Assembly: GCA_050259595.1 (NCBI GenBank)
Contig: JBLNAX010000096.1
Span: 2,734-66,733 of the forward strand
Direction of reading: 5' to 3'
DNA length: 64,000 nucleotides
Source: Acidobacteriota bacterium
GTDB lineage: Bacteria; Bacillota; Syntrophomonadia; Syntrophomonadales; DTU052
Positions within the stretch are counted from its first letter, which is position 1; each line of letters begins with the position of its first letter. The notes beneath the pieces were generated by a model. The model saw only the letters and a program-made list of their open reading frames with translations. It was not told where the DNA came from and did not search any database. Shown one piece after another: positions 4,601 to 54,855 of the stretch. The position numbers were made by a program, and so were the translations under genes.

Positions 4601-4668
4601 GTCGGCGATCCTTCCTCGCTAAAGACTGATCAAACTTACACTTAATCTGAATATTTGTACCTTATATC

Positions 4669-4696
4669 ATTTGACGATGGTTTAGAATTCTCCTGC
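4669..4696 (-). promoter_or_regulatory. SigH-like promoter of the diguanylate cyclase gene
   Basis: GCAGGAGAA...GTCAAAT on the minus strand; 18 nt between AGGA and AAAT. Confidence 0.45.
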
Positions 4697-4830
4697 ATTT
4701 AGCAGAATCAAAGTTTCTTAAGCGAATTTGATTTGACAGTAACAGGGAAATGGGCGATATTGGCTATATATTATATAATTGTAATAATGAACAACGGGAT
4801 TAAAATGCTGTGGAGATGAGGTGTAAAGTT

Positions 4831-6591: not shown

Positions 6592-6626
6592 GATGTAATG
6601 AGAAGTCAACAAATAAAGGTATAATT

Positions 6627-6652
6627 AAAAGGCCGCTGAACAAGCGGCCTTT
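6627..6652. terminator. Bidirectional terminator
   Basis: AAAAGGCCGCT-GAACA-AGCGGCCTTT between convergent genes. Confidence 0.7.
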
Positions 6653-6654
6653 AT

Positions 6655-7185
6655 TCATGCCAACAAACTTATAACCAGCTTGGGTACCAGTGTTACAACA
6701 AGAACACCGTATATAAGGTCTAACCAAAAGAATGAGCCCAGTGCACAGATATAAAGAAGCCCTACTATGGGTTTTCCTATAAATCGGGCAATTGGAGAAG
6801 CCCCAGAATGATTGATGGCCTTCCGGACTTCTTTGGCATCGCCAAGGCTGGGGAAGGAATGCATGGCAATTGATGCAGCTAACCATATAAGAAAGATGTC
6901 TAATATGTGTATTGAATCCAGGTTTAAGTACCTGTAGACGGACGGGAATGCAATTAGAATCCCTGTCAAAGTATTCACGGACATTGGCCCCAGGCCGATT
7001 ATTAGGCTCTGATATGAGGTTTTGGGATTTTCGTGAACTATGTAACCAGCAGGAGTGTCAAAACGGAAATAGCAGACCTCATAAACAGCTAATCCACACA
7101 GCTTGCAGAACAATAGATGAGCTAATTCGTGGACTATGACCCCGGGAAAAGTAAATAACGATATTACCGAGCCAGGTATGAACAT
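6655..7185 (-). CDS. Membrane zinc metalloprotease-like protein (HExxH zincin, DUF3267-like)
   Basis: FPGVIVHELAHLLFC, GYIVHE, several TM helices, FPSLGD. Confidence 0.75.
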   Translation of the reverse strand: MFIPGSVISLFTFPGVIVHELAHLLFCKLCGLAVYEVCYFRFDTPAGYIVHENPKTSYQSLIIGLGPMSVNTLTGILIAFPSVYRYLNLDSIHILDIFLIWLAASIAMHSFPSLGDAKEVRKAINHSGASPIARFIGKPIVGLLYICALGSFFWLDLIYGVLVVTLVPKLVISLLA

Positions 7186-7332
7186 AGGAATTCCCCCTTA
7201 GTATTATTTACTCTATTTAATTTAGAAAGTAAATTGGTTTAGTTGATTTCCAAAATGAATTTGAGATATTTATTCTACACATGGAGTTAATCGATTATAA
7301 TAAACAACATAAACAACTTAATAACTTGGGAA

Positions 7333-7493
7333 ACCGGTACCCGTGCCTAAGTCAGGCCGGGTAAAAGGGAAAGCGGTGTGATTCCGCTGCAGTTTATCCC
7401 CTACTGTGATCGCGACCAAACCTGCGTTTGCCACTGGATTATTCCGGGAAGGTGCAGGGAGTAGGATGAGCGAAAGCCAGGAGACCTGCCGGT
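7333..7493 (+). ncRNA. Cobalamin riboswitch
   Basis: AAAAGGGAAAGCGGTGTGATTCCGC, CCCCTACTGTGA, GCCACTG...GGGAAGG and the B12 box AGCCAGGAGACCTGCC; lies upstream of the B12 uptake genes. Confidence 0.95.
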
Positions 7494-7562
7494 GATTCTT
7501 AAGTACTCTATCTTCCGGGATGAGAAGGGGGACTGTTATGGTGTCATACTATACCTGACAAG

Positions 7563-7631: not shown

Positions 7632-8882
7632 ATGTTAAGAGTCAAGAGTGGTTTATGGAAGCCGGGCATAGTTAGCCTGATATTATTGTTGATTATGGGG
7701 ATAATGGTTCCCCAGACTATAGCTGCAACGACGGCGGATGATGTCAATTATTCACTGCGTAAGGCGGTCGACTATTATTATGATTCTGGAAAAACCTTAG
7801 ATTGGATGTACGCCCTGGGTTTAGGTTCCGCGGGAGATGCCGGGGCTATGAGATATGATGTGGGTAGTCCAGACTTCTCAAAGTTGACTGATGCTGAAAA
7901 CAGATTGATGGGGCTAGTTGCGGCCCAAAGAGATGTGACAGCTGTTTCAGTTAATGGCGAGGTATACAACCTGGTGCAGATTATTGCCAGCAGCCAGAAG
8001 CCGGACGGACATTTCGGCGGGCCGGGCGCCACACTCAACAACACGTTATGGGCTGTGATCGCCCTCGATATGGCTGCTAATAATGGTGTATCAAGTGCAG
8101 TCTACAGTTATGATGCAGACAAGGCTCTTGATTACATATCAGGTAAACAGTGTGCAGATGGAGGGTTTGACGAGAGCGGGTGGGGCGAAGACGCGGACTC
8201 TACAGCTCATGTCCTGCTGGCTATAGCTCCGCACGTGACATCTGACAGCCAGATAATAACCAAAGCTCTAAATTATTTAAGCAGTAAGCAGCTTCCCTCC
8301 GGTGGTATCGATAACTGGGGCGAGAACCCCTCCAGCACTGCGGCAGTCATAGAAGCCCTTGTGGCTCTGGGCAAGGACCCACAGGGATCTGAATGGACTA
8401 AAGACGGGCATAACCTGGTCGGTAGTCTGCTTAGCTACCAGACTGCTACTGGTGGATTCATTCAGACTACTAACTGGGGACCGGTCGACCACACAGCTTT
8501 TGCTTTGTTGGCATTGACCGATCTGGCTAGCTGTAAGTCCAAATACCAGCATCAGTTCGTCATCACTCCTTGCGATATTCATCTGGCTGTCGATTCAACT
8601 GCCACTCTAGTGGCTGGATCCGATGCTGACTTGACGGTTAGAGTTGCCAATGTTTCAGGGAACAACAAGCCAGTACTCGTGATCGCTGTACTATATAATT
8701 CATCAGGTAAAATGGAGCGTTACTCTTATGCTAGCCATGAGATTGCCGCCGGAACAACTCAGGGCTTTGGCCTTGGGTTTGGGCTACCGGTTGGCACAGG
8801 CTATAAGGTTAAGGTTATGGTCTGGGATTCATGGCAAAATCGGCAGCCCCTGTGCAGTGCCGTAACCATTCCGGTCAATTAG
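7632..8882 (+). CDS. Secreted prenyltransferase/squalene-oxidase-repeat (alpha/alpha barrel) protein with C-terminal Ig-like domain
   Basis: Signal peptide; repeats SQKPDGHF, KQCADGGF, KQLPSGGI, YQTATGGF; DSTAHVLLA/STAAVIEAL; C-terminal KVMVWDSW..PL. Confidence 0.85.
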   Translation: MLRVKSGLWKPGIVSLILLLIMGIMVPQTIAATTADDVNYSLRKAVDYYYDSGKTLDWMYALGLGSAGDAGAMRYDVGSPDFSKLTDAENRLMGLVAAQRDVTAVSVNGEVYNLVQIIASSQKPDGHFGGPGATLNNTLWAVIALDMAANNGVSSAVYSYDADKALDYISGKQCADGGFDESGWGEDADSTAHVLLAIAPHVTSDSQIITKALNYLSSKQLPSGGIDNWGENPSSTAAVIEALVALGKDPQGSEWTKDGHNLVGSLLSYQTATGGFIQTTNWGPVDHTAFALLALTDLASCKSKYQHQFVITPCDIHLAVDSTATLVAGSDADLTVRVANVSGNNKPVLVIAVLYNSSGKMERYSYASHEIAAGTTQGFGLGFGLPVGTGYKVKVMVWDSWQNRQPLCSAVTIPVN

Positions 8883-8885
8883 GAG

Positions 8886-10262
8886 GTGCGGTCGATGAAA
8901 CCCAGATGGATAATAACTTGGATATTAGCACTGATACTGATCCTTCAGAGTGTCGCCAGTGTTGCTGCACTTAGCACCCTACAGGTAGAGAGCAAGCCTG
9001 GTAAACTGACTGTTTCTGGCCAGGCGAACGCTAACACTCAGGTCGCTCTGACGGTGACCGACCAGATATATGGTGGACGAAAATACCTGGGACAGGTCAA
9101 GGCTGATAACAATGGCAGCTTTTCTGTTGATGTGCCGTTAGAGATAGGCAGCTACCGTATTTTTGCCACTGGGTCCAGTATAAATCATGAAACAACAGCT
9201 TCAGTTAGTGTCACTGACAGTTCCTCTTTACCGTCGGGTGACGGGGGTGGTGGCAACAATCAACAGGCAATGACGTTATCCATTCAAGTGACCGGCGATA
9301 GCCAGCGTGGAGTAATGCTGGGGCGAACCGTGAAGACCTATCCGAAGGGGACTCTTAAAACGGCGCTGGATCTGCTGCGTGATACCTTGACAGCTGCCGG
9401 GATCAACTATGTTGTAGACGGAAATGGCTATGTAAAAGCAATCGGCGGGTTAAAGGAATTCGATCGGGGAGCCAACAGTGGTTGGCTATACTATGTGAAT
9501 AACACTTCACCTCCCGTGGGAGCAGATAATTGTACCGTTAATGATGGTGATTATGTTGAGTTCAGGTATGTCATTGACGGATTGGCAGGCGATCAATTCA
9601 ACATGGGGGGCGGTGGAATACCGGACCCGATAAAACAAGACACAAATAAACCTGCCCAACCGCTCACAACCTCTACAGAGAAAACAGTGAGCAGTCCGGC
9701 CAGCACGGGCGACTGGGCCAATCAGGCACTCAGTGAACTCATACGACGTGGAATCATAAAGAGTGATGCCAAGGATTTTCAACCCAAAAGGGCTATAACC
9801 CGGGCTGAGTTTGTCTCATTGCTTTATCGCGCTCAGGCCTTTAAAACCCCCGCCGATTCCGAACCATCATTCACTGATGTCAAACCAGGCAGTTGGTGCC
9901 ATGAGGCGGTTGAGGGTGCTGCTCAGGCTGGAATCATTGGAGGTTTCAGTGATGGAACTTTTAAACCGAACCAACCGTTGACCCGCTACCAGGCGGCGGC
10001 TATACTGCGCAATTTAGGCGATATAAAGGCTACCAGCAATAAGAAGCCATCTGATCATGGCCAGATACCGGAATGGGCGCAGCCCGGAGTAGTTTATGTT
10101 TTCAATACGGGTCTAATGGGAGGATATCCCGGAGGAGTGTTCCGTGGCGAAGGTAAGATAACCCGGGCGGAGGCGGCAGCCTTGCTGGTAAATTATTTGA
10201 ATGCTAAGATCCCAACTGCAACTCCGCAGGGCAGTAGCCAATCGTCGAGAGCTAGTAAGTAG
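8886..10262 (+). CDS. S-layer protein: N-terminal Ig-like domain, DUF4430 (transcobalamin beta-like) domain, three SLH domains
   Basis: YVKAIGGLKEFDRGANSGWLYYVN...VGADNCTVNDGDYVEFRY; SLH motifs ITRAEFV, FKPNQPLTRYQAA, ITRAEAA. Confidence 0.9.
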   Translation: MRSMKPRWIITWILALILILQSVASVAALSTLQVESKPGKLTVSGQANANTQVALTVTDQIYGGRKYLGQVKADNNGSFSVDVPLEIGSYRIFATGSSINHETTASVSVTDSSSLPSGDGGGGNNQQAMTLSIQVTGDSQRGVMLGRTVKTYPKGTLKTALDLLRDTLTAAGINYVVDGNGYVKAIGGLKEFDRGANSGWLYYVNNTSPPVGADNCTVNDGDYVEFRYVIDGLAGDQFNMGGGGIPDPIKQDTNKPAQPLTTSTEKTVSSPASTGDWANQALSELIRRGIIKSDAKDFQPKRAITRAEFVSLLYRAQAFKTPADSEPSFTDVKPGSWCHEAVEGAAQAGIIGGFSDGTFKPNQPLTRYQAAAILRNLGDIKATSNKKPSDHGQIPEWAQPGVVYVFNTGLMGGYPGGVFRGEGKITRAEAAALLVNYLNAKIPTATPQGSSQSSRASK

Positions 10263-10307
10263 AGTTAAACCATATCGTTAGTTTGCTTGGAGGTAGGATC
10301 GTAAAGT

Positions 10308-11171
10308 ATGGAACGATGGCAGTCTATGCCCCTTTTTACATATTGCATGGTATGGATGCTGATCATCCTGCTTTACCAGCATCCGTTATGCCTGACGATT
10401 ATGGGTATAGGACTGATGATAACAGTGAATGCTCTTGGTTTGATCAAAAATGCTGTTCGCAATATAGGCTATATCCTGCCTGTAATACTGATGCTGCTAG
10501 TGATCAATTCATTAATAAACAACAATGGACGCCAGGTCTTGATCGCAGTTCAATTGTTGGGTGCTCTTAGAGTAGTCTATTGGGAACCGTTGATATTCAG
10601 CCTGGCTATGAGCCTGAAATTGATCGATTTAATGCTTTTATTCGTATTGATAAATGAATTTCTGGAACCGTATCGCATTATCGAATTGAGTGGAGGCAAG
10701 CTGCATAAGCCGGTGCTGGTCATGGCCATGGCCCTACGCATTGTTCCATTTATGGGGGCGGAAATAAAACGGGTCCAGGAATCTTACCGTACACGAGGAT
10801 TTACATTTAGGGGAGGTCTTCTGCAACGTACTCGGGAATATGGGGTGTTGGCTAGAGCTGCCCTGATCCTGGCCTTGGAAAATGCGGCTGCCTGGGCGGA
10901 AGCCATGCAGGCGCGAGGTTACGGGGCTGGTCCCCGCAGTCACTATTTTCGCGGTGCTTGGAGTGCGGCCGATCATTATGTTATGGCTGCTAGTCTTATC
11001 GCCCTGACCATTGCCGTTATTGCTTTCGTTTTCAACTATGGAGCTGATCAATACTATTACGGAGTGGCTACTCAGCCAAGAGTCATCGAGGTAATTGCAG
11101 TAGTGGCCTTGACTGTTATAATATCGGGTCCGGGAATTCTCGCCGGGAGGTGGCGAAACTGGCAATATTAG
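10308..11171 (+). CDS. ecfT: ECF transporter T component
   Basis: Multiple TM helices; ALRIVP...RTRG and AEAMQARGY coupling-helix motifs. Confidence 0.9.
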   Translation: MERWQSMPLFTYCMVWMLIILLYQHPLCLTIMGIGLMITVNALGLIKNAVRNIGYILPVILMLLVINSLINNNGRQVLIAVQLLGALRVVYWEPLIFSLAMSLKLIDLMLLFVLINEFLEPYRIIELSGGKLHKPVLVMAMALRIVPFMGAEIKRVQESYRTRGFTFRGGLLQRTREYGVLARAALILALENAAAWAEAMQARGYGAGPRSHYFRGAWSAADHYVMAASLIALTIAVIAFVFNYGADQYYYGVATQPRVIEVIAVVALTVIISGPGILAGRWRNWQY

Positions 11172-12835
11172 AAGCAGACAGAATCAACTACCGCTACCCG
11201 CGGAGCCAAGAGATGGCTTTAAAGGGGATCAGTATGTCGGTCGAGCCCGGAGAAATGATGTTGGTGATCGGACAGTCTGGATCAGGCAAATCGACACTGG
11301 CCAAAGTTTTAGCCGGACTGGTACCTGATTTCTATGGTGGGTTGTTTTCTGGCCGAGTCTTGTACAAAGGACGTGAGCTGCGCGAATGGCATAAAATGCA
11401 GCGGACCCAGCAGATAGGTTTTGTCTTCCAAGATTCCGAACGGCAGCTGATATTTGATCAGGTAGAAAGAGAGATTGCCTTCGGGTTAGAAAATTTGGGT
11501 CTATCCCGCCCTGCCATGCATCTACGGGTGGCTGAAGTCTGCGATTATCTTGGCATACACAGCCTGCTCCGCCGGGCGGTACATGAGCTTTCTGGTGGAG
11601 AACGGCAAAAGGTGGCACTGGCCGGGGTCCTGGCCATGCACCCGGAACTTTTGATCCTGGATGAACCGGTCTCACAGCTTGATCCGATAGCAGCTGAGGA
11701 GTTTATTCAGATCGTCAAAAGGCTTAATGAAGAGCGTGGAATAACCGTTATAATCTGTGAACAAAGAACCGAGCGATTATTCCATATAGTCGATAAAACT
11801 GCAGTCATAAACGATGGCAGGATCACAGACACGGGAACGCCACATAGCGTAGCAATGAGGACGGCTAGAGACTACCTGTTGCCTACTGTTCCGCGCTTAT
11901 TCCGCCAGGCGGGCTGGAGTGCATCGCTGCCGCTGAGCATCCGGGAAGGGCGGCAATCGATCAGCCGTATGGCTGATCCAGCTTTGATACATATGGCCGA
12001 CACTGATGGAAATGATTCTGTTGGGCTAAGAGGTCCGAATGTGGTCAGCTTGAATAAGGTTTGGGTAGGTTATGAGTCCGGCCATGAAGTACTGAAGGAC
12101 GTGAGCTTTGACATTGCGGCGGGCGAAATCGTTGGTATTGCCGGTGGTAACGGGGCCGGAAAGTCAACCCTCCTGAAAACGATATCCGGTCTTGTCAGTA
12201 GTAAGCAAGGCCGGGTCGAAGTACTGGGACGGGCCGGACGCCAGCTCAAGCCAGAAAAATTAGCTGGTCAAATAGGTTACCTGCCGCAGAATCCCGCCGA
12301 CATGTTGTGGAGCGGCACCGTGCGTGAAGAGCTCACACAGACAGTAGCCAAACTGGGATGCCTGGACCAAGTCTTGATAGATCGAATCGTTGGTATTTTA
12401 AATCTGGAATCTCTGCTCGATGCTAACCCCCGGGAACTTAGCCAGGGTGAACAGGTGAGAGTAGCACTCGCTTCGATAGTATCAATAAAACCTCAGTTAC
12501 TGTTATTGGATGAGCCTACCCGAGGACTGGACAGCCTGAACCGGGAAGCTGTAGGGCAGTTGATCAAGGTCATGGCGTTGGCTGGATCAACGGTAATGAT
12601 CGTCTCCCATGATACCGAATTCCTGGCCGACTATGTTCAGCGTTTACTTATAATGTTTGATGGACAGATCGTGGCTGATGGAGCCAAGGAAGAAATCTTG
12701 CGGGAAAGTGTATTTTACTCCCCGCCAGCGGCGAGCATTTTCAGAGGAATAGATGATTCTATTCTCACCCAGGAACAGGCTCGTAAACAACTGGAACAGT
12801 ATTTGGCGAACAACCGAGAGGACTGTGCAACTTAA
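11150..12835 (+). CDS. ECF transporter duplicated ATPase
   Basis: Two ABC domains: GQSGSGKST/LSGGERQ/LILDEP and GGNGAGKST/LSQGEQ/LLLDEP. Confidence 0.95.
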   Translation: MAKLAILEADRINYRYPRSQEMALKGISMSVEPGEMMLVIGQSGSGKSTLAKVLAGLVPDFYGGLFSGRVLYKGRELREWHKMQRTQQIGFVFQDSERQLIFDQVEREIAFGLENLGLSRPAMHLRVAEVCDYLGIHSLLRRAVHELSGGERQKVALAGVLAMHPELLILDEPVSQLDPIAAEEFIQIVKRLNEERGITVIICEQRTERLFHIVDKTAVINDGRITDTGTPHSVAMRTARDYLLPTVPRLFRQAGWSASLPLSIREGRQSISRMADPALIHMADTDGNDSVGLRGPNVVSLNKVWVGYESGHEVLKDVSFDIAAGEIVGIAGGNGAGKSTLLKTISGLVSSKQGRVEVLGRAGRQLKPEKLAGQIGYLPQNPADMLWSGTVREELTQTVAKLGCLDQVLIDRIVGILNLESLLDANPRELSQGEQVRVALASIVSIKPQLLLLDEPTRGLDSLNREAVGQLIKVMALAGSTVMIVSHDTEFLADYVQRLLIMFDGQIVADGAKEEILRESVFYSPPAASIFRGIDDSILTQEQARKQLEQYLANNREDCAT

Positions 12836-13521
12836 TGGAATCAGTATTAGACTTGATCAGCCTGTTGAAAAACCTGAATTGGGGCCTGACCAGCTTTGTT
12901 TTACTGGTGTTAGCCTTGTGGTTTTTCTTGTGGAGAGCAGACCGATCATCGATGGGGGTTCGTGACATTACCCTGGTTGCTACTCTATCAGCGGTTGCTG
13001 CTCTAGGACGCGTTCCCTTCGCTGCTCTGCCCGGTATACAGCCTACGACCTTTATGGTCACTGTTGCTGGTTTGGTATTCGGCGGGCGAGCCGGATTTTT
13101 AGTAGGTTGCCTGGGGGCGCTGGTATCCAACTTCTTTTTGGGTCAAGGGCCATGGACTCTTTGGCAGATGGCAGCCTGGGGGTTGATCGGCGTTTGTGCG
13201 GGATGGTGGGGCAAATATGATTTTGCTTCAACGCGCTGGGGATTGGCTCTGTACGGCATTGTTTGGGCTTTTCTTTTTGGCTGGATAATGAATGTCCAAT
13301 ATTGGATCACCTTCACCTATCCATTGACAATTTCGGGGTATTTGACCGCATGTGCAACCAGTGTGTGGTTCGACTTCCTTCATGCAGCCAGTAACGCTGT
13401 ACTAGGATTCATTATCGGGCCGGAGATAGTTAAGCTGCTGCGGGAATATCGTTTGGTTTTTGAAGCCGTTCCGGTTGAACAGGCTTCTACTGATAGTTCA
13501 GATATAGCGGAGGATTGCTGA
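12835..13521 (+). CDS. cbrT: ECF S component, CbrT-like (cobalamin)
   Basis: GRVPFAALPGIQPTTF and SNFFLGQGPWTLWQM motifs; B12 riboswitch context. Confidence 0.8.
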   Translation: MESVLDLISLLKNLNWGLTSFVLLVLALWFFLWRADRSSMGVRDITLVATLSAVAALGRVPFAALPGIQPTTFMVTVAGLVFGGRAGFLVGCLGALVSNFFLGQGPWTLWQMAAWGLIGVCAGWWGKYDFASTRWGLALYGIVWAFLFGWIMNVQYWITFTYPLTISGYLTACATSVWFDFLHAASNAVLGFIIGPEIVKLLREYRLVFEAVPVEQASTDSSDIAEDC

Positions 13522-14498
13522 TGCTGAAGAGGATCATTGTCTGTGTATTATTGATTGCCGCGCTGGCGGGCCTGGCAAATTACCGGCAGTTACAGGGAAG
13601 TGTTAGTGCTTTCTTCACAGGCCATGATCTTTCCGATAAAGCAGTGACATCCCGAGATAAAGTAAAGTTGTGGGTTACAGCTGATTATGGTTCTATGACA
13701 ATATGGAGTGGAGAAATCGAAACAGCCCCCGGACAGGACCTGCTAGATCTAATGAAAAAGCACATGCAGGTAGGAACCGGCTATGGTGGTGGTTTCGTAA
13801 AGACTATAAATGGTTTTCCCGCCCAAGATTCGTCACCCGCGAGCAAAGATTGGTTTCTATACATAGACGGCATTCTGTCAGATAAGGGTGCAGGGGAGGC
13901 CGTACCCGCCAATGGCCAGGTAGTGTGGTGGGATTTCCATGGCTGGGATGGTACGACGTTTGTCCCCGCTTCAATAGGAGCCTATCCCAGGCCTTTGAGT
14001 AGTGAGATCATCATTGCCGCTCCCGCAGGTGAAGATTCACAGAAAGCGGCCGATCAAGTGGCAAAGATCGTTGGCGGAAAAACGAGAAACAAGACCAAAT
14101 TAATTCCGCTTACCAAAGGATGGACGCCGGAGTCATACAAATGCCCGGTGATCGTAATTGGCGCATGGCCAGAATTGTCCAAGATACCAGCCGTTACCGC
14201 ACTTTTTCAGCGTTCGGTGGAAAGCGGGATTTTCTGTGGTTTCAAAAATGGTGATTTGCTAGCATATGATGAACAGGGCCGGGTTGCACGGGAATTCGGG
14301 GCTGGTTGTGGATGTTTGGTGGCGTCTGGTTCCGGTCTCGGTGACACCAGCCCAGTGTGGATAATCAGCAGCACCGATCGCCAGGGTATGGAAAGTGTGA
14401 TTAGATTATTGCGGGAACATCCAGAGAAGGTTAGCCGGAGATTTGGCTTAGTGGCTGCTGGCTCTGAAATACTGGCGTTGCCAGCCAAGCGTAAATAG
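13515..14498 (+). CDS. Membrane-anchored or secreted DUF4430-domain protein
   Basis: N-terminal hydrophobic anchor; YGGGFVKTING...DWFLYIDGILSDKGAGE...VVWWDFH. Confidence 0.85.
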   Translation: MLMLKRIIVCVLLIAALAGLANYRQLQGSVSAFFTGHDLSDKAVTSRDKVKLWVTADYGSMTIWSGEIETAPGQDLLDLMKKHMQVGTGYGGGFVKTINGFPAQDSSPASKDWFLYIDGILSDKGAGEAVPANGQVVWWDFHGWDGTTFVPASIGAYPRPLSSEIIIAAPAGEDSQKAADQVAKIVGGKTRNKTKLIPLTKGWTPESYKCPVIVIGAWPELSKIPAVTALFQRSVESGIFCGFKNGDLLAYDEQGRVAREFGAGCGCLVASGSGLGDTSPVWIISSTDRQGMESVIRLLREHPEKVSRRFGLVAAGSEILALPAKRK

Positions 14499-14510
14499 TA
14501 GGAGGTCATT

Positions 14511-15530
14511 ATGAGAGCATTCAAACATATCGTGCCAATTTTACTGATAGCGATATTGTTGCCTATTGTCTCGCCAACCGCTTTGTCTGCAGTTCCATCG
14601 AATAAAACGGCTGTGGTGGAGGCTGATAAAGAAGCAGCTAAAGCTCGGGACTATCTCCTGAGCCAATATAAAAACGGGGCTTCAGATTGGGGTCTGATAG
14701 CTCTCTCTGCTCAGACCGGAAACAAAGATAGTCAAAGAATCGCAGATCTAAAGAAAAACTGGATGAATAAAACTATAAGTCAGCTTAAGAGTAAATCCGA
14801 TTTGCCCCGGGTCACCACCGACTACGCGCGGTTAGCGCTGGCGGTGGCTGCTGCCAATGGCAACCCCCGTAACTGTGGAGGAATCGATCTGGTACAGAAT
14901 CTGATCGATTCGCAGACACCAAGTGGGAAGTTTGCTGATTTAGTGGATGGCACCGGAGAAGAACTGGTCAATGCGCACATCTGGGCGATCATAGTTTTAT
15001 ACTCGTGTGGGGAAGAGGTGCCGCAGCCGGAGATGGCGCGGCGCTGGCTGATCGATCACCAGAACCGTGATGGAGGCTTTGGATTCAAGGCTTCAAGCAA
15101 TGTATCTGATGTAGACATAACTGCACAAGCGTTGTTAGCTCTTAATTGTTTAGGCGATACCTCGAGCTCACCAGTGGTGCGCCGTGGTCTAGCTTATTTA
15201 AAAAAACGCCAGGCGGCCAGTGCTGGCTTTGCGGGTTGGGGTGGCGAAAACTGTGAATCATCGGCATCAGTCTTACAGACACTGATCGCATTCAGGATCG
15301 ATCCCCTGGCTGCTCAATGGACAGTAAAGAGCAAGAACATGCTGGGCTTTATGAAATCGTGCCAGCTTGATAATGGCGCTTTTGGCCATCTGGCGGGTGG
15401 CACTGCCAACGTTATGGCTACTGAACATGCTTTGCTTGCTTTGAGTGAGTATCGCGATGGGGTGACCATATATCAGAAACTCCATAAAAGCAGACTGCAA
15501 AAGAGCAGCAAGCCACGAGTCAAAGGCTAA
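14511..15530 (+). CDS. Secreted prenyltransferase-repeat alpha/alpha barrel protein
   Basis: Signal peptide; TTDYARLALA, SQTPSGKF, HQNRDGGF, DVDITAQALLAL, ENCESSASVL, CQLDNGAF, NVMATEHALLAL. Confidence 0.85.
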   Translation: MRAFKHIVPILLIAILLPIVSPTALSAVPSNKTAVVEADKEAAKARDYLLSQYKNGASDWGLIALSAQTGNKDSQRIADLKKNWMNKTISQLKSKSDLPRVTTDYARLALAVAAANGNPRNCGGIDLVQNLIDSQTPSGKFADLVDGTGEELVNAHIWAIIVLYSCGEEVPQPEMARRWLIDHQNRDGGFGFKASSNVSDVDITAQALLALNCLGDTSSSPVVRRGLAYLKKRQAASAGFAGWGGENCESSASVLQTLIAFRIDPLAAQWTVKSKNMLGFMKSCQLDNGAFGHLAGGTANVMATEHALLALSEYRDGVTIYQKLHKSRLQKSSKPRVKG

Positions 15531-15599: not shown

Positions 15600-17240
15600 T
15601 TATGGAACCGGCATATCCGGTAAACGGTCTTTGCTGGTCATGTCATAGAACCAGAATTTCGGTTTCTGAACTGTTCCGAAGCAGGTGGCATAGGGCATGA
15701 TCATGTTGTAATTACTGCCACTGATGCTCGGCGTGCCGCTGAAGAGCTGGGCCCCCAAACCGCCCGTGGATGTCAGTTTATAGACTTGGAAATCACCAGC
15801 ATGACACTTGACACATATTTCTGCAGCAGAAGTTCCGCCAGTATCAGCGTACATGAAGAACTCATCTGCTGTCGGTGCGGCGTAGAATTTGAGCTGTACT
15901 GTCAGGTTATTTGTGCGGTCCATTCTTACATCCGCAAAGTCGCGGCCATCGGCGATTGCCGGTTCATTGACATCGCTTTTCCACATCGGCAGACGCTGCG
16001 AGCTCTTGGTGGTCGGATAGATTGTCAGGTCCGGAGGAGTGTAACCGGCTGCTTTTACATCAGCTGCTGCCTGGCCTAGGGTCTTCCAACCGCGAAGTTT
16101 ATCAAAGAATAACGGTGTGCCTAGGGTTCCAGGATTATAGCCCAGGACTGCATTCCAGCCTACCCAGGCTGCACTGCCATGATCTACGACCCATTTGGGG
16201 AGACCGTTCATACCCGCAGGGTCGGAACTGCTGCAGGAGCAGTCGGCCCAGATGGTTTTGGGGAAGTCATGATCGTTCCAGTATGCTGCGGCAAATTGAC
16301 TGCCGATAGCGTATACGTAATTAACTTCATCAGTTACCCAGTTGTCTACACTGAATACGATGGTGCCGGTATAGCCGCTGTTCCAGGCGGGCGGTGAAGT
16401 GTAGTAGGGGCGGACCATGAAGTAGAAGTCATTGTTTACTACTCCGCCGTGAGCGGCGAAGAAGATCATGCCGTAGTCATTATCCATATTGGCGGCTGCT
16501 GCCAGGTTGGCAGAGTCATTGTTTTTTATAGTGGTCTGGAATCCCATTTCAGCCAGATAATTATTGATTTGATCACCCATGGTGACACACCCGGCAGCCT
16601 GGTCTCTCATTGTGTTAAAGATCAGAGCCTTGCGGGATGACGGAGTATTAGGCAAAAACATGATCGGATTAGGTCTTACCAGGTTAGGGTCGATCACTAC
16701 TTGATTATTAGGAACAATGGTGTATACATTCGATGATGTACTATCGTTAGGGATTATCTTGCCGGGATCTATTATAGTTTTGTCAACGGTTACCGGCGGT
16801 TTGGGAAGAGGGGTAGCTGTGGCCACTGGGAGGGTTGCCTTAGGGCTGATAGCAGCAGCGGGCAGTGCTGCGCCGAAGGTGCTCTTGCCCAGCATCATCA
16901 GCATTTTGTAGCCGTTCTTATATTCGACGAAGATGTTTCCGCCGGGCTGCAGTTTAGCTATCTTGACAGCAGGCTGCTGTATTATGTATTGTAGCTGCTG
17001 CTGAAGCACTGGAGCCGGGGCCTTTTTCTTCTGTAAAACCTGGATCCTGTAATTCTGATGTACGTTCTTTGTAATACTCTTAATGGTGTCCGTATTCACA
17101 GCTTGTGAGCCCGGGGGTTCTGGCTGTGGATTGATGGCCAGTGTCGGCAGAGCCGTTACCATTGTCAGCATAAATGTTAACAGTAGAATAAATACCGTGG
17201 TCTCGCGTTTGAAGGGGTTGCTTTTAAATAACCTTTTCAT
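15600..17240 (-). CDS. Secreted protein with a clan CD (caspase/CHAT/gingipain-fold) cysteine-peptidase-like domain
   Basis: Signal peptide, INPQPEPPG, Pro-rich linker, then MIFFAAHG...TIWADCSCSS...DHGSAAWVGW...FFDKLRGWKTLGQA, matching the CHAT/C25 element order; beta-rich C-terminal domain. Confidence 0.65.
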   Translation of the reverse strand: MKRLFKSNPFKRETTVFILLLTFMLTMVTALPTLAINPQPEPPGSQAVNTDTIKSITKNVHQNYRIQVLQKKKAPAPVLQQQLQYIIQQPAVKIAKLQPGGNIFVEYKNGYKMLMMLGKSTFGAALPAAAISPKATLPVATATPLPKPPVTVDKTIIDPGKIIPNDSTSSNVYTIVPNNQVVIDPNLVRPNPIMFLPNTPSSRKALIFNTMRDQAAGCVTMGDQINNYLAEMGFQTTIKNNDSANLAAAANMDNDYGMIFFAAHGGVVNNDFYFMVRPYYTSPPAWNSGYTGTIVFSVDNWVTDEVNYVYAIGSQFAAAYWNDHDFPKTIWADCSCSSSDPAGMNGLPKWVVDHGSAAWVGWNAVLGYNPGTLGTPLFFDKLRGWKTLGQAAADVKAAGYTPPDLTIYPTTKSSQRLPMWKSDVNEPAIADGRDFADVRMDRTNNLTVQLKFYAAPTADEFFMYADTGGTSAAEICVKCHAGDFQVYKLTSTGGLGAQLFSGTPSISGSNYNMIMPYATCFGTVQKPKFWFYDMTSKDRLPDMPVP

Positions 17241-17368
17241 CTTTCTGTCCTCCCAAATAACTTTTTATTTCTCTAATTACCAGCATTTCTTTTTCCAGGC
17301 TGGTCTGGAGTTCAAAACCTATTTCGGTGTAATCGTTTTACATCGGCGGCACCTCCTTTATGAATCAA

Positions 17369-17411
17369 ATTATATTTGGAAAAAACTTTTGTTTCTGTGA
17401 TGGGCATCACA
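17369..17411 (-). promoter_or_regulatory. Crp/Fnr-type site with -10 box (class II promoter)
   Basis: TGTGA-TGGGCA-TCACA at 17396-17411; TATAAT on the minus strand at 17369-17374. Confidence 0.7.
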
Positions 17412-17620
17412 AAATCAAAAATAATTTTCTGAGATATTGACTCTTCCTTAAGCTTTTTAATGCCTAACTAAAGGATTGTGCATTTGGCATCCGGTGATGG
17501 CGATTAGACCTGAAAAATAAAAGGATTATTATCAGTATTTAAAGATATCACGTGAGATTCAAAGAGGGGGACGATCGTGGGGTCTATCAAATGCAAAGCA
17601 GAAAGCCAAATTAAAGTTTT

Positions 17621-17644
17621 AGGGACGGGAAAATTCCCGTCCCT
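17621..17644. terminator. Terminator hairpin after the peptide gene
   Basis: AGGGACGGGAA-AA-TTCCCGTCCCT inverted repeat. Confidence 0.65.
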
Positions 17645-17666
17645 TTGTGTATTGGCTTTAATTAAC

Positions 17667-17876
17667 TTAGGGTCTGGTAGGAGAACCATCCGCACCCTGG
17701 AAAATGCTGCCCCAATTCGTAGGCAGGCTGTCCGGTCCCATCACTATACCGGGTCTTAGAATGATGGTCGGAGAAGTATCCGCCCCGGCCATTACTGCTG
17801 GTGCCAGTGCCATTACAAATATGGCTATCAACACAGCCAGCATGACCAGTTTGGTTTTGCTACGGAACATCGCCAC
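17667..17876 (-). CDS. Small secreted peptide with three G[AP]DxxPT repeats
   Basis: GGAAGGGAGGG RBS, Sec signal peptide (...LAPAVMA), own promoter and terminator; repeats GADTSPT, GPDSLPT, GADGSPT. Confidence 0.75.
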   Translation of the reverse strand: MAMFRSKTKLVMLAVLIAIFVMALAPAVMAGADTSPTIILRPGIVMGPDSLPTNWGSIFQGADGSPTRP

Positions 17877-17921
17877 TCACTAATCCCTCCCTTCCAAGTT
17901 TATAAGTGTCTAACCAATAAT

Positions 17922-17965
17922 ATTATACAATATCCAATAAGCGGTTTTCTGTGGCCGTCATCACA
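17922..17965 (-). promoter_or_regulatory. Crp/Fnr-type site with -10 box (class II promoter)
   Basis: TGTGG-CCGTCA-TCACA at 17950-17965; TATAAT on the minus strand at 17922-17927. Confidence 0.65.
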
Positions 17966-17998: not shown

Positions 17999-18214
17999 TT
18001 ACAAACTGGTTCCTATTGGGCTGTTCATTGTTCCGAATTCCTCAGCATCAGTATATATCGTATTCCCCTTTGGCTTGAAAGTCTCACAGCAGGTCCCGAC
18101 CGATGATTCTACGATTCGGTCACCTGCCGCGCGCACTTCTATGCCTTTCGCGTTGCACTCGAAATCCCGATTATATTTGCATTCCTCAACCAGACAGCGG
18201 TCGACGTTGGGCAT
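17999..18214 (-). CDS. DUF1540-like small Cys-rich protein
   Basis: CLVEECKYN...CNAKGIEV...TCCETF; AAAGGAGG RBS. Confidence 0.85.
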   Translation of the reverse strand: MPNVDRCLVEECKYNRDFECNAKGIEVRAAGDRIVESSVGTCCETFKPKGNTIYTDAEEFGTMNSPIGTSL

Positions 18215-28310: not shown

Positions 28311-28325
28311 ATAAGGAGAACACTT

Positions 28326-34232: not shown

Positions 34233-35237
34233 TTATATAGTTGGAGTTGTAGTTGTTACGGTATTCGACTGTGCTTTGCCCAGGTCATTGATTGCCCATA
34301 TTTCATATGTATAAGTTGTTCCAGGTGCTGCTGTGTCATCTGCAAAGGAAGTTGTGTCAGCTGCCAGATCCCAGGTGGTCTTATGTCCTTCTGAGTCGCC
34401 ACGATACAATCTGAACTTCGTCTCATTAGTTGAATTGTCTACCCAGGATAAACAAATTTCGGTACTTGTGACTGATGTGGCGGTCAGATTACTAGGTGCC
34501 ATTGGTGGGGTATCTGTAGATATGGTTACAGTAATTGGATCTGTCATTGGTGAATCACCCCAGCAGTTGCGAGCAAACATGCGATAGGTGTATGTATGGC
34601 CAGGTACTACATCAAAATCGCTGGCGTCCCAGTGCAATGCTGACACCGGATACATACACTCGTGCCAGGAATCATCAGGACCATCTTTTCTTAGAATATG
34701 AAACGATTCTGCATCCATTTTACCCTGCGCCCAACCAATACTTGTGTGCAGATAATCTCCACAGGCAACAAAGTCCATTGGCATGTCAGGCACTTTATCC
34801 TCATACATGGCCGGTTTTTCGCCAGAGTAATAAGTATAAACAGATGGTGTGACATCTTTGCGGACGCCCCTCACGCGGTAATAGTATGTAATATTAGGTA
34901 CTGCATACGCATCAGTATAGCTCGTAGCTCCAACACCTGTGGTGCCGATCCTGGTATAATAGGTTTCGCCTTCTTTACGGCGTTCGATTTCGAAACATCT
35001 CTGAACATCGGAACTAATATACCAGTAGATAACAATTTTGCGGTTATACAATACTTGGATCTGGCTTAGGGTAGGACTCGGATCAAATCTGGTAAACTCT
35101 ATGCTTGGGCCGGGCTTCATAGTGACTGTCTGAATAGGCTGCAGTGTTATTGCCGCTGGGGTTGGCTGTACCGCCATTGCCACCAGAAGCATGGTGGCGA
35201 CCAATGTGTTGAAGATCTTCGCTGAGAGATTTTTCAT
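34233..35237 (-). CDS. Secreted fibronectin type III repeat protein
   Basis: Signal peptide; three FN3 domains (YYYRVRG, PGHTYTYRMFARN, APSNLTA...WVDNSTNE...PGTTYTYEI). Confidence 0.88.
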   Translation of the reverse strand: MKNLSAKIFNTLVATMLLVAMAVQPTPAAITLQPIQTVTMKPGPSIEFTRFDPSPTLSQIQVLYNRKIVIYWYISSDVQRCFEIERRKEGETYYTRIGTTGVGATSYTDAYAVPNITYYYRVRGVRKDVTPSVYTYYSGEKPAMYEDKVPDMPMDFVACGDYLHTSIGWAQGKMDAESFHILRKDGPDDSWHECMYPVSALHWDASDFDVVPGHTYTYRMFARNCWGDSPMTDPITVTISTDTPPMAPSNLTATSVTSTEICLSWVDNSTNETKFRLYRGDSEGHKTTWDLAADTTSFADDTAAPGTTYTYEIWAINDLGKAQSNTVTTTTPTI

Positions 35238-35481: not shown

Positions 35482-36297
35482 ATGTATGCGGACAGTTCGA
35501 AAAAAAGCAGGCGTGAAAAGTGGCATGAGGACCCCCAGCCGGCCAACAAGATCAAGGCGATCATTGCTTTGAAAAATGCATTTCTGCCTACGCTGGATGA
35601 TATTCTAGCTGATTACAGAAATCGCTTCGATTTGGATATCGACCCTCGCAATATTGAAATCCACACTGGAAGGTTCTCATTTGAAATAGGCATGGAAAGG
35701 TACACTATCTATCTAATGCCGGTTGCTATCCCTTGGTTGTCGTTAGAGGGGCCCTGCGCTCTGGCCTGGTATTGGCCTAAAGCCACCATTTCTATGCAGT
35801 CACACACCGCACATTTGTTGATAACTACTGAGACAACTGTTGATACATCCACCGATGCTCTGGCCCGGGTGATGACCCTGACCAGAATGAGCGCCGCCGC
35901 CGCTGCCAAAAGTGATTCGGTCGGCGTATACTGGGATGCGGGAGGGGTTATTCAGGAAGCCCAGGAATTCATATTCTCCGCTGAGGAAATGAGCAAAGAT
36001 GAGCTTCCATTGAACCTCTGGATAGATTTTAGGATAGAGGATGCCCCTGGAGAAAGATTCAAGCTGTTCACGACTGGTATGAGAGTTTTCGGTCATCGCG
36101 AGATCGAGGTTAGACCTGCCCGGATCAATCCTGACGAGATATTGAGTACAGTGTTTAATGTGGCTTGCTATCTCCTGCTAAACGGACCGGTAATCAAGGA
36201 CGGCAATACTATCGGTGCCACCGATGAGGATAGAATGCTGGTTCAGTATGGACCTTCCATGTTTGAACGGGAGCAGGTAATGATCCTCAGAATGTGA
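35482..36297 (+). CDS. DUF4261-like domain protein
   Basis: HTAHLLI, LPLNLWI, FTTGMRVFGHREIE, YLLLNGPVIKDGNTIG. Confidence 0.75.
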   Translation: MYADSSKKSRREKWHEDPQPANKIKAIIALKNAFLPTLDDILADYRNRFDLDIDPRNIEIHTGRFSFEIGMERYTIYLMPVAIPWLSLEGPCALAWYWPKATISMQSHTAHLLITTETTVDTSTDALARVMTLTRMSAAAAAKSDSVGVYWDAGGVIQEAQEFIFSAEEMSKDELPLNLWIDFRIEDAPGERFKLFTTGMRVFGHREIEVRPARINPDEILSTVFNVACYLLLNGPVIKDGNTIGATDEDRMLVQYGPSMFEREQVMILRM

Positions 36298-36892: not shown

Positions 36893-38158
36893 GTGCGGCG
36901 ACTATGGGTGGTTCTCATTGCAGTATTATTGTTAAGCGGCTGCGCAGGTCCGGCAGCAAACCAGGGGGGCCAGCAAAACACAGGTGATTGGCAGAGATCT
37001 TATGCGGGGGCCAGTGGTTGGAGAATTGGCTATAGTGTAACTGAAACCAGCAGCAGTAATTTCGTTATTGCAGGAAAACAGATCAATGCCAGTAATGACA
37101 GTGCGACAAATAGCATCTTTATGACCAATGCCGATGCCAATGGCCGGGCACAATGGGCTATCAATTCTTTAAAAGATGATAAAGGTGTTTCTGAGTATGC
37201 TTTTTATGTTGCTGCCAGCAATGATGGAGGAATCAACTTTTTATCTAGAAAACAAGGTAATGGAACAACCACTGCAGAAACCACAGCCTGTTTCATGGAT
37301 CAACAGCACAGTATGAAGTTTAATGAGGTCCTTGATGCCAAACGGGTGTTGAATGAATTCAGCCGCATACAGAGTTTGAACGATGGGGGATATCTGGCTG
37401 TTGCTTTTGATTCAGGCGGTATAATGAACAATGATGGTGGACAGCCCATACTTACCATGGATCAAGCATACCTGGTCAACTACGACAGCCGATGGAACAA
37501 GATATGGGAAGTGCCACTTGCCAAATCAGCTTCCAACTCGGCAAATTATCGAGTTTCTTCACTAGTCCAGACCCGAGATAAAGGATATCTGCTGCTGGCG
37601 TCAGCGGTTGAAGAAATGATCGATGTGCCAGCCAGCTTAGTGATGAAATACGATAATAAAGGAGCCTGTTTGTGGAGCCGGGCGGCTGAAAAGGCCAAGG
37701 ATATTGTGCCAGCAACCGATAACAACGGTTTTGTTTTGTTAGGTTCGGGGATCAATGATACTACAGACGAGCAGGTGATGCAGGTGAGCAGCTTTGACAA
37801 CATGGGCAAAAAACAGTGGTGCAGGACTTTTCCAGGCGTTACAAATGGATTTAGGATCATCGCCGGCAAAAGTGGAGGATACATCATCACGGGAACCACT
37901 GCAGTATCATCTGGAACAGATATATACGCGGTTATACTGGATTCATTGGGGAATAGATTGTGGGATAAAAAGAGTCAGGTCAGTAAGGTTGGATGTCCGT
38001 TTCAGATAATACAGACCCGGGCTGGTGCTATAGTGATAGCAGCCAATCAGGGGAAAGTGAGTACGGGCAGCAATCTATGGGACACAGAAACTGAAGGTGA
38101 TGTAGTGTTGATCAAGTTTGAACTGCCCGGTTCACCTAAACCAGCGGATCTTATATAG
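36893..38158 (+). CDS. Lipoprotein with probable beta-propeller repeats
   Basis: Lipobox LLSGC; repeats such as DGGYL/DKGYL...KYDNKG..LW. Confidence 0.8.
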   Translation: MRRLWVVLIAVLLLSGCAGPAANQGGQQNTGDWQRSYAGASGWRIGYSVTETSSSNFVIAGKQINASNDSATNSIFMTNADANGRAQWAINSLKDDKGVSEYAFYVAASNDGGINFLSRKQGNGTTTAETTACFMDQQHSMKFNEVLDAKRVLNEFSRIQSLNDGGYLAVAFDSGGIMNNDGGQPILTMDQAYLVNYDSRWNKIWEVPLAKSASNSANYRVSSLVQTRDKGYLLLASAVEEMIDVPASLVMKYDNKGACLWSRAAEKAKDIVPATDNNGFVLLGSGINDTTDEQVMQVSSFDNMGKKQWCRTFPGVTNGFRIIAGKSGGYIITGTTAVSSGTDIYAVILDSLGNRLWDKKSQVSKVGCPFQIIQTRAGAIVIAANQGKVSTGSNLWDTETEGDVVLIKFELPGSPKPADLI

Positions 38159-53688: not shown

Positions 53689-53708
53689 GCTGGATTCGGC
53701 CATATATT

Positions 53709-53820: not shown

Positions 53821-54855
53821 ATGAAAAAGTATTACAGTCAACTCCTGCAAACCCTCAACAGTAGTATTACGGGCTTATCGGCCATGGTTATCAAAAGCGA
53901 CGAAGAGAGCTATCTGGGCCACAAGGTCTGTACTGATGCTGTTGGGCGGCTGTTGTTTCACAGTGGACCGGCGGAACTGACTGATACTTTGCTTAATGTG
54001 CTCAATCAACACAATCACAATATGCACACGATTCTACAGGTGCCAGGTGCGGGGACGGTATTTATCGAACCACTGCAAGCGGCACCAAATGTCCTGATTT
54101 TAGGCGGTGGGCACGTGGCTCAGGCTTTATCCAAAATTCTAAGTGTTATAAGGTATCAGGTAACAGTTGTTGATGACAGGTCTAGTTTTGCCGATACGCT
54201 GCATTTTCCCGGTGCTGATCAGGTAGTTTGCGGTGCCTTTATAGAAGTGATAGAAAAACATAACTTTAATAAGAATGACTTTGCCGTTATCTGTACCCGC
54301 GGTCATAGTCATGATATGGAGTGTCTGCGAGCCTTGATCGGTAAACCTTTAGGCTACATAGGCATGATAGGGAGCGCTCAGAAGACCAGAACCATATTCG
54401 CGGCCTTAGAAAACGAGGGTATAACCTGGGAACGACTGGCTGATGTTCATTCACCTATAGGCCTTGATATTGGAGCGCGGACCCCCGAAGAAATAGCAGT
54501 CAGTATTGCTGCCGAGATAATTTCCGTAAACAATCAACTTCGTGGTGAACCACTCGATGTTAAGTGGTTGGAAAGGGTGGCTGCAGTGGAACAAGCGGCA
54601 GCTATCGTAACAGTGACGATGATCATGGGTTGTGCGCCGCGTAAGGCGGGGGCCAGAATGCTTGTAATGGCTGACGGCAGTACTTATGGTACTATAGGGG
54701 GCGGGACCGGCGAAGAGATGGCCAGGGTCAACGCTTTGGAGGTCATCGATACCGGAAAACCGCAATACTTCTGCATGGATATGAACAACGAGATAGCGGC
54801 CAATGATGGTATGATCTGTGGCGGACAGATGCAGATGTTTATCGAGCCTTTGTAG
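53821..54855 (+). CDS. XdhC/CoxI-family molybdoenzyme maturation factor
   Basis: LGGGHVA, TRGHSHD, YIGMIGS, PIGLDIGARTPEEIAVSI; C-terminal APRKAGARM..GTIGGG..MICGG. Confidence 0.92.
   Translation: MKKYYSQLLQTLNSSITGLSAMVIKSDEESYLGHKVCTDAVGRLLFHSGPAELTDTLLNVLNQHNHNMHTILQVPGAGTVFIEPLQAAPNVLILGGGHVAQALSKILSVIRYQVTVVDDRSSFADTLHFPGADQVVCGAFIEVIEKHNFNKNDFAVICTRGHSHDMECLRALIGKPLGYIGMIGSAQKTRTIFAALENEGITWERLADVHSPIGLDIGARTPEEIAVSIAAEIISVNNQLRGEPLDVKWLERVAAVEQAAAIVTVTMIMGCAPRKAGARMLVMADGSTYGTIGGGTGEEMARVNALEVIDTGKPQYFCMDMNNEIAANDGMICGGQMQMFIEPL

Follow-up and report, generated by a model that had tools for sequence, protein, structure and literature searches.

A predicted secreted clan-CD cysteine protease from an uncurated family and an adjacent orphan repeat peptide under matching CRP/FNR-type promoters

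Cysteine endopeptidases of clan CD, which have the caspase-haemoglobinase fold, are defined by a catalytic His and a catalytic Cys, situated where consecutive central strands end, and by a Gly beside the His, which is conserved across all families of the clan (PMC4357240). Here we describe a gene for a predicted secreted protein of this clan, 546 aa in length, and the neighboring gene for a 69-aa repeat peptide. Both lie on the minus strand of a 64,000-nt stretch of DNA (hereafter the window; contig JBLNAX010000096.1 of assembly GCA_050259595.1, positions 2,734 to 66,733) that is deposited under the name Acidobacteriota bacterium and placed by GTDB within the Bacillota, order Syntrophomonadales. 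A first-pass annotation made from the letters alone had proposed that the protease cuts the peptide at its repeats as part of a signaling or RiPP-like system (RiPP, ribosomally synthesized and post-translationally modified peptide). We consider it most likely that the two genes are co-regulated but do not constitute a conserved protease-substrate system.

Several described systems resemble one or the other of these genes. The gingipains (family C25), such as RgpB of Porphyromonas gingivalis, are secreted bacterial clan-CD cysteine endopeptidases, as the window protein is predicted to be. RgpB is built from an N-terminal prodomain, a catalytic domain and an Ig-like beta-sandwich, with His-Gly and Cys at strand ends (PMC4357240); the window protein has a similar layout, with an N-terminal module in front, and RgpB is among its best structural matches. 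The C-terminal domain of the window protease also recurs in a true Peptidase_C25 protein, P0050. However, the window protease does not match the gingipain model PF01364, its N-terminal domain (N-domain) consists of two helices and a three-stranded sheet, and its host, judged by domain content and by the genomes that carry homologs, is apparently a Bacillota-type anaerobe rather than a member of the Bacteroidota. CHAT proteases, including SAVED-CHAT, Csx29 (TPR-CHAT) and DdvA, are cytoplasmic or membrane-bound switches in defense and signaling that are activated by nucleotides or by partner proteins. They supply the best structural matches to the catalytic domain and have the same fold and dyad order, but the window protein is predicted to be exported, has no sensor domain and matches no CHAT model in Pfam. 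MALT1 and the metacaspases (C14B) share a caspase plus Ig-like architecture with the window protein, and MALT1 is the top structural match to the protein as a whole; there is, however, no membership at the sequence level, and MALT1 is cytosolic whereas the window protease is predicted to be secreted.

For the peptide, the closest described analogue would be the Phr-type tandemly duplicated propeptide of Bacillota. The RRNPPA systems of this phylum have tandem pheromone propeptides that are small, exported by the Sec pathway, composed of repeated units and matured by extracellular proteases (PMC11343458). The window peptide differs from them in having no cognate receptor gene next to it and no sequence relation to any of them, and known RRNPPA systems do not have a dedicated clan-CD protease. 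Short recognition motifs also alternate with variable stretches in multi-core precursors, such as those of cyanobactin-type RiPPs and of yeast alpha-factor, and the window peptide looks alike in this respect. It nevertheless carries a Sec signal peptide instead of a RiPP leader, lacks the Cys, Ser or Thr pattern of modified cores and belongs to no precursor family, and neither a modifying enzyme nor a dedicated transporter nor an immunity gene was found among its neighbors. On each feature that could be tested, the comparison with RiPPs breaks down.

Fold, family and S1 pocket of the protease

Structural models support the 546-aa protein as a clan-CD cysteine endopeptidase that is predicted to be secreted. 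Modeled in full with AlphaFold2 (AF2) from the family alignment, the protein scored 83.6 for the predicted local distance difference test (pLDDT) and 0.78 for the predicted TM-score (pTM), with low pLDDT limited to the signal peptide and to the linker at residues 121-194; the catalytic domain modeled alone reached 93.8 and 0.91. When the whole-protein model was compared with the PDB by Foldseek, MALT1 (caspase plus Ig3) came first (2.8e-5) and RgpB close behind (8.3e-5), with further matches to CHAT proteins, caspases, Kgp and a metacaspase. The catalytic domain alone matched SAVED-CHAT 8tl0 (7.8e-6, TMq 0.55-0.56) and RgpB (6.0e-4, TMq 0.54), as well as DdvA, caspase-9, Csx29, caspase-4, a metacaspase and MALT1; the best matches were the CHAT entries 8tl0, 8rw5, 8eey and 7zoq. 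Among the domain-only matches listed, all were clan-CD enzymes, with probabilities of 0.96-1.00 and TMq values of 0.44-0.56, and no single family of the clan was clearly the nearest.

The dyad agrees with this fold. In the secondary structure of the model (DSSP), His264 comes after the strand at 256-262 and Cys336 after the strand at 330-334, so that the modeled protein combines the fold with the His-before-Cys order at strand C-terminal ends and with a Gly beside the His. Aligned relatives conserve H264 in 29 of 31 cases, G265 in 28 of 31 and C336 in 31 of 32, and all three residues are present in each of nine homologs from eight genomic loci (see below). The first-pass annotation had read a secreted caspase/CHAT-fold protease with a His-Gly/Cys dyad in the segments FFAAHG and WADCSC. 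The models bear this out: the caspase-like fold was recovered, FFAAHG supplies H264-G265, and in WADCSC it is the second Cys that corresponds to the conserved C336.

We then asked to which family the enzyme belongs. HMMER, run exhaustively against 1.84 billion representative sequences, returned 85 proteins at E<=1e-3, the protein's own record included, with 54 of these at <=1e-10 and 24 at <=1e-30. The window protease matched no Pfam family at E<=0.1 and nothing in NCBIfam; with the Pfam limit raised to 10, ExbD alone appeared (E=0.11), and the models for C25 gingipain, C14, C13 legumain, C11 clostripain and CHAT all remained unmatched. A Pfam scan of 33 family members gave no clan-CD family among the best 25 of 37 families. 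Searching the sequences in the PDB with the family profile yielded matches at chance level only (eS7; subtilisin E, E 0.9), and the catalytic domain alone yielded none at E<=10. Seven relatives bear names in the databases, six of them "hypothetical protein" and one a name taken from its accessory domain, and none is called a peptidase. A tblastn search of plasmids with the protease gave no match. By these searches the family is real but small and absent from the curated libraries; we call it undescribed on the sole basis of a literature search, which returned nothing specific to it.

Alignment of the catalytic-domain profile with the C25 part of P0050 (hhalign) covered only the His-Gly strand, at a probability of 2.8%, and so gave no evidence for membership in C25. 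A feature search of the Atlas had returned clusters labeled "gingipain domain" or Peptidase_C25 at 0.79, which is under the meaningful level, and was used as a lead only.

After its signal peptide the protein would consist of four parts: the N-domain, a Pro/Thr-rich linker, the catalytic domain and a C-terminal beta-sandwich. The N-domain is present in most family members, while the linker varies across them in both length and sequence. Many of the 85 HMMER matches were matched in the C-terminal domain alone, which recurs in many other proteins; P0050, for example, shares only this domain, placed ahead of its Peptidase_C25 domain. Among the 52 of 85 relatives scanned in Pfam, accessory domains included Cu_amine_oxidN1 in seven and Laminin_G_3 in four, with CARDB, PKD or fn3 in single relatives, and fusions of this kind point to an extracellular life for the family. 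In the mechanism that we propose, the enzyme would be made as a zymogen whose N-domain blocks activity until the linker is cut. The N-domain would thereby be removed or displaced, and the activated enzyme would have proteins or peptides outside the cell as its targets.

The S1 pocket of clan-CD enzymes is determined by the alpha1/L1 region, by L4 at the position two residues ahead of the Cys (Cys-2) and by L5; caspase-7 has Arg87, Gln184 and Arg233 there, MALT1 has Asp365, Asp462 and Glu500, and a basic P1 residue is the commonest preference in the clan (PMC4357240). We assigned the corresponding positions in the family by alignment and secondary structure. The family is acidic at these presumed S1 positions, with D209 in 23 of 28 relatives, D213 in 25 of 29, D214 in 16 of 29, E or D at Cys-2 in 14 of 32 and D372 in 23 of 30, and the full acidic set occurs in all nine genomic homologs. 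Since the consensus is acidic in all three S1 regions, with D209/D213, the Cys-2 residue and D372 standing where MALT1 has its own three acidic residues, the family at large probably prefers Arg or Lys at P1. The first-pass annotation had assumed cleavage after Asp, a specificity borrowed from caspases and legumain, and this assumption sits poorly with a clan of mostly basic P1 preference and a family whose S1 consensus is acidic.

The window enzyme itself departs from the family and, in this respect, from MALT1 as well. It has N209, Q214, C334 and T372 at the presumed S1 positions and keeps D213 alone, and its Arg212 occurs in no other row of the alignment; the relative P0002 has the same neutral residues. 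With the S1 positions replaced in this way, a changed specificity is possible. Measured against an Asp-type set, and judged by alignment and secondary structure only, R212 in L1 is present, C334 stands at Cys-2, T372 lies on L5 and D213 is retained. We also entertained cleavage at Arg-Pro, given LRPG in the peptide and LVRPN in the linker, and dropped the idea because the linker motif is not conserved in the relatives.

The repeat peptide and its shared promoter type

The 69-aa gene is a real gene, and its product, as read from the sequence, is a Sec-exported, disordered 39-aa tandem-repeat orphan peptide. The mature part predicted to follow AVMA is GADTSPTIILRPGIVMGPDSLPTNWGSIFQGADGSPTRP. The first-pass annotation had reported three copies of the motif G[AP]DxxPT, and these were confirmed, with their first residues at precursor positions 31, 47 and 61. 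Only 1 in 100,000 shuffles of the mature part contained three copies of this motif, and only 2 in 20,000 contained three copies of any 4-of-7 pattern. In a six-frame translation of the window the motif occurs three times, each time within this open reading frame (ORF). Synonymous codons vary among the three copies, which fits selection at the protein level rather than a fresh duplication of DNA. Residues 31-46, 47-60 and 61-69 can also be read as three diverged motif-led units, the last one truncated; since the first copy lies at the signal-peptidase site, the peptide may be composed of three units that open with the motif instead of spacers around two cores.

Among the ORFs of 35-130 aa in the window, this is the only one with both a ribosome-binding site (RBS) and a signal-peptide-like start. 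Its codon-usage score of 0.25 is in line with in-frame windows of real genes (0.22 +/- 0.09; off-frame, -0.60 +/- 0.25), although one antisense frame scores 0.29, and the strand is therefore not settled by codon usage on its own. A hairpin follows the stop codon: the 81-nt fold has a free energy of -27.7 kcal/mol (z = -5.9), and none of 200 shuffles folded as well. We propose that it serves as a terminator or a stabilizer; a clean U-run is absent 3' of it on the minus strand. Its Atlas model, with a pLDDT of 0.45, predicts a disordered peptide. Relatives of the peptide were sought among 5.8 billion proteins, where the search at similar lengths returned only the peptide itself and the search at longer lengths returned 76 candidates, none of which scored. 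An Atlas search with the peptide gave no match above chance, and in tblastn against the eight homolog loci the best E value, apart from the match to itself, was 0.6. A reading of the peptide as a Sec-dependent bacteriocin was dropped, since its net charge is about -1 and genes for immunity or a transporter are missing.

Both genes have the expected translation and export signals. The RBS of the protease gene, GGGAGG at 17254..17249, lies 8 nt ahead of the ATG at 17240, and that of the peptide gene, GGGAGGG at 17891..17885, lies 8 nt ahead of the GTG at 17876. Both N-termini read as signal peptides, with a basic n-region, a hydrophobic core and a small-x-small site, and the putative signal-peptidase cuts fall between PTLA and INPQ in the protease and between AVMA and GAD in the peptide. 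The two ORFs, their translations (546 aa and 69 aa) and the positions of both signal peptides agree with those given in the first-pass annotation.

The annotation had also described separate but matching Crp/Fnr class-II promoters for the two genes, and our analysis of sites and spacing upholds this. The window contains three exact copies of the palindrome TGTGA-N6-TCACA, where 0.06 would be expected, and none of 100 shuffles reached this count. The exact sites lie at 17396, ahead of the protease gene, and at 35321-35336 and 36749-36764, and a copy with one mismatch lies at 17950, ahead of the peptide gene. A -10-like hexamer is found 21-23 nt past all four sites (21-22 nt for the two promoters of the pair). 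Judged by this spacing, the site centers would fall near -41.5 to -43.5 (-41.5/-42.5 for the pair), which is the class-II geometry, in which the site overlaps the -35 region. All four of these promoter-proximal sites precede genes for secreted proteins or lipoproteins. The sites at 35321 and 36749, about 18 kb from the pair, precede genes for three proteins: one secreted and with fn3 (34233..35237, minus strand), one with DUF4261 (35482..36297) and one lipoprotein whose family is not known (36893..38158). Because further secreted-protein genes have the same promoter, the promoter type is not private to the pair and marks a regulon of exported proteins; the sequence thus suggests a CRP/FNR-type regulon in which the two genes would be transcribed separately, from class-II promoters, as part of a wider set of secreted and surface proteins. 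One further one-mismatch site, at 42348 within a histidine-kinase gene, is probably due to chance. No gene of the Crp/Fnr family was found in the window. Upstream of the protease homologs, a CRP-type site was found in none of the eight loci, the single match being inside a gene in locus L006.

Homologous loci and the protease-peptide link

To compare the pair with other genomes we scanned one genome per species, using an alignment of seven sequences as query. Eight loci with a protease homolog were found, with nine homologous genes in all, in Pelotomaculum, Desulfobulbus rhabdoformis, Geobacter, Syntrophomonas (two loci) and metagenome-assembled genomes of Chlorobaculum, a deltaproteobacterium and a member of the Syntrophomonadaceae. 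None of the eight loci has G[AP]DxxPT near the homolog, and none has a small ORF with a signal peptide and repeats within 1.5 kb of it. Locus L002 does contain an isolated G[AP]DxxPT (11906, minus strand), but the ORF around it encodes 307 aa, not a small peptide, and is some 4.5 kb away from the homolog. The protease homologs thus occur without the peptide, an outcome that the first-pass annotation had named as contrary to its own proposal. It had also expected the motif to be conserved in peptide homologs while the cores vary, an expectation that could not be borne out, as the peptide has no homolog in the search of 5.8 billion proteins, in the Atlas or in the eight loci.

What does recur beside the homologs is the N-domain. 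In four of the eight loci a stand-alone copy of 110-146 aa is encoded directly downstream of the homolog (E 4e-14 to 2e-8), and several of these proteins begin like lipoproteins. The stand-alone protein may be a trans-acting prodomain or an inhibitor. The window has no such gene.

Locus L006 has two tandem protease paralogs (4071-4631, 4493-5689, 5812-7461). The N-domain of the upstream paralog lies in a separate reading frame that overlaps the catalytic part, so this gene is split or frameshifted.

The explanation that we favor, and hold to be probable as a whole, is that a clan-CD enzyme of an uncurated family and an orphan peptide are co-regulated and that the pair is not conserved; the adjacency of the two genes would then be incidental. 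As it stands, the link between protease and peptide consists only of adjacency and shared regulation, and every comparative test, of peptide homologs and of the eight loci, left the peptide-processing system of the first-pass annotation unsupported. Some points do count against this reading. The comparison of pair conservation covers only eight genomic loci, the models reach TM-scores of no more than about 0.5 with clan-CD structures that have been solved, and the prodomain role that we give to the N-domain comes only from its position and from analogy with gingipains. The closest relative, P0002 (42% identity), which is the sister of the window enzyme in the tree (support 100/99), carries Tyr where the catalytic His would be and Ser where the catalytic Cys would be. 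P0002 is probably an inactive pseudo-enzyme, judging from these residues, and part of this small clade would then probably be non-catalytic. Finally, the unusual S1 set of the window enzyme, together with an orphan neighbor under the same promoter type, could reflect a pairing specific to this lineage. Processing of the peptide by the protease, if real, would be a novelty of this lineage: the enzyme would have rebuilt its S1 pocket and recruited a new G[AP]DxxPT peptide under the same CRP-type regulator, recognizing the motif and freeing short extracellular peptides. We think such a module distinctly unlikely. The first-pass annotation had been more specific, with the protease cutting after the Asp of each motif to free products of 16 aa and 14 aa that serve as signals or have other bioactivity. 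Its appeal lies in two adjoining genes that share a strand and a promoter type, and in a repeat that is far beyond chance and, from its synonymous codon differences, apparently kept at the protein level. An acidic pocket would repel Asp, so the loss of the acidic S1 residues (N209, Q214, C334, T372) also counts in its favor, as does the gain of Arg212 where caspase-7 has Arg87 (PMC4357240). However, only one of the three caspase-type determinants, the L1 Arg, has a possible counterpart, whereas the Gln at Cys-2 and the Arg on L5 do not, and Asp213 is retained. Moreover, the peptide has no homolog and no equivalent in the eight loci, a cut after the Asp of the N-terminal motif copy would free a mere tripeptide, and the reading as three diverged motif-led units serves equally well. 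On balance we regard cleavage after the motif Asp as very unlikely.

The other explanations that we weighed assign the peptide a different role or none. It might be a Phr-like tandem propeptide, matured by this protease, by another extracellular protease or by both, with its receptor encoded elsewhere. The Sec signal peptide, the short disordered mature part and the tandem-unit layout would suit such a role, the Bacillota provide the precedent given above, and a co-regulated gene for a predicted secreted protease adjoins. We nonetheless judge it unlikely: no RRNPPA-like or TPR receptor gene is adjacent or was found among the window ORFs of at least 120 aa that were scanned, and the peptide has no family. 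The extracellular proteases known to mature RRNPPA pheromones are subtilisin-like, and we know of no clan-CD enzyme in this role. Alternatively, the peptide could modulate the protease, as a competitive pseudo-substrate, an inhibitor or a tether, without being consumed. Beyond adjacency and shared regulation, this idea draws on the stand-alone N-domain proteins, since their pairing with the homolog in four of eight other loci indicates that the family tends toward a small accessory protein, and the window is without one. Yet the peptide bears no relation to the N-domain, lacks conservation and has a prediction of disorder, and we find a modulator scarcely credible. Last, the 69-codon ORF might yield no protein, its repeat being a chance product or a relic, but this we hold to be highly doubtful. 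In its favor, no homolog was found anywhere searched, and one antisense frame has an equally good codon-usage score. Set against this are a strong, correctly spaced RBS, a signal peptide of canonical form, a CRP-type site and an extended -10 in the promoter, a hairpin directly past the stop codon, the significance of the repeat in shuffles and the fact that the ORF is unique of its kind in 64 kb.

Gene neighborhood and implications

In the order of transcription on the minus strand, the DUF1540 gene (17999..18214) is followed by the 69-codon ORF, the hairpin, a 380-bp spacer and the 546-codon ORF, whose 3' end abuts the terminator of a convergent operon. The coordinates of the features of the pair, and of the stand-alone N-domain genes in other loci, are collected in the table. 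The ATG-TAA pair listed there may be a leader element: it comes directly past the -10 predicted for the protease promoter, and the true start codon is about 100 nt further on.

Table. Positions of the protease and peptide features within the window, and of stand-alone N-domain genes in related loci (coordinates of those loci).
Feature	Coordinates	Strand	Basis
Clan-CD cysteine protease gene, 546 aa, predicted secreted	15600..17240 (stop codon included)	-	ORF list, RBS, AF2 model, relatives
Protease signal peptide, residues 1-35, MKRLFK...PTLA	17136..17240	-	Sequence reading; modeled helix 9-29
Protease N-domain, residues ~45-120, proposed prodomain	16881..17108	-	pLDDT 93-98 over residues 50-116
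Pro/Thr/Ala-rich disordered linker, residues 121-194	16659..16880	-	pLDDT 30-47
Catalytic caspase-haemoglobinase-fold domain, residues 195-415	15996..16658	-	Domain-only AF2 model and Foldseek
His264 codon, proposed catalytic His, with Gly265 next	16449..16451	-	Alignment of relatives
Cys336 codon, proposed nucleophile	16233..16235	-	Alignment of relatives
C-terminal beta-sandwich domain, residues 418-546	15603..15989	-	All-beta in model, pLDDT >93
CRP/FNR-type palindrome TGTGATGGGCATCACA, 5' of protease gene	17396..17411	.	Exact TGTGA-N6-TCACA
-10 hexamer TATAAT of protease promoter	17374..17369	-	21 nt past palindrome
ATG-TAA start-stop pair in protease leader, 8 nt behind strong AAAGGAGG	17338..17343	-	Sequence reading
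GC-rich 10-bp hairpin, 23 nt past peptide stop codon	17621..17644	-	Folding
69-aa repeat peptide gene; signal peptide residues 1-30, mature part 31-69	17667..17876	-	ORF list, RBS
Motif copy 1, GADTSPT, residues 31-37, abutting signal-peptidase site	17766..17786	-	
Motif copy 2, GPDSLPT, residues 47-53	17718..17738	-	
Motif copy 3, GADGSPT, residues 61-67	17676..17696	-	
CRP/FNR-type site with one mismatch, TGTGGCCGTCATCACA, 5' of peptide gene	17950..17965	.	
Extended -10 (TG-TATAAT) of peptide promoter	TATAAT 17927..17922	-	TG 20 nt past CRP/FNR-type site
Stand-alone N-domain genes	L002 7572-8009; L003 7299-7709; L004 5643-5972; L006 7514-7885		

The neighbors of the pair are the DUF1540 gene, genes for a MurF-like ligase and an NlpC/P60 protein, and a transport operon of the energy-coupling factor (ECF) type controlled by a cobalamin riboswitch. 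The riboswitch (95 bits) lies at 7318-7507 on the plus strand, ahead of the long operon at 7632-15530 on the same strand. This operon encodes two prenyltransferase/squalene-cyclase-like alpha-alpha toroid proteins and two DUF4430 proteins, one of them with SLH domains, along with CbiQ, an ECF S component and a double ABC ATPase, and has the look of a system that captures B12 at the cell surface and takes it up. Elsewhere in the window, a riboswitch for the molybdenum or tungsten cofactor (65 bits; 53586-53702, plus strand) lies 5' of an XdhC-like gene (53821..54855). At 27393-30443, also on the plus strand, split transketolase genes are followed by the gene for a 369-aa protein resembling the RuBisCO large chain (PF00016, 7e-33), and this region is probably a RuBisCO-like protein cluster.

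The protease family would represent a new branch of clan CD, with an N-terminal module of its own, distinct from the cytoplasmic CHAT switches and from the much-studied gingipains, and its members occur in anaerobes, among them Pelotomaculum, Syntrophomonas, Desulfobulbus and Geobacter. As an exception within the family at the positions presumed to set P1, the window enzyme offers a natural case for studying a change of specificity on the caspase fold. If the peptide were its substrate, we would know of no earlier clan-CD enzyme dedicated to the maturation of a Sec-exported, multi-unit bacterial peptide, and if the lineage-specific module outlined above were true, the two genes would form a de novo module for the maturation of a pheromone or bioactive peptide, built on a caspase-fold enzyme.

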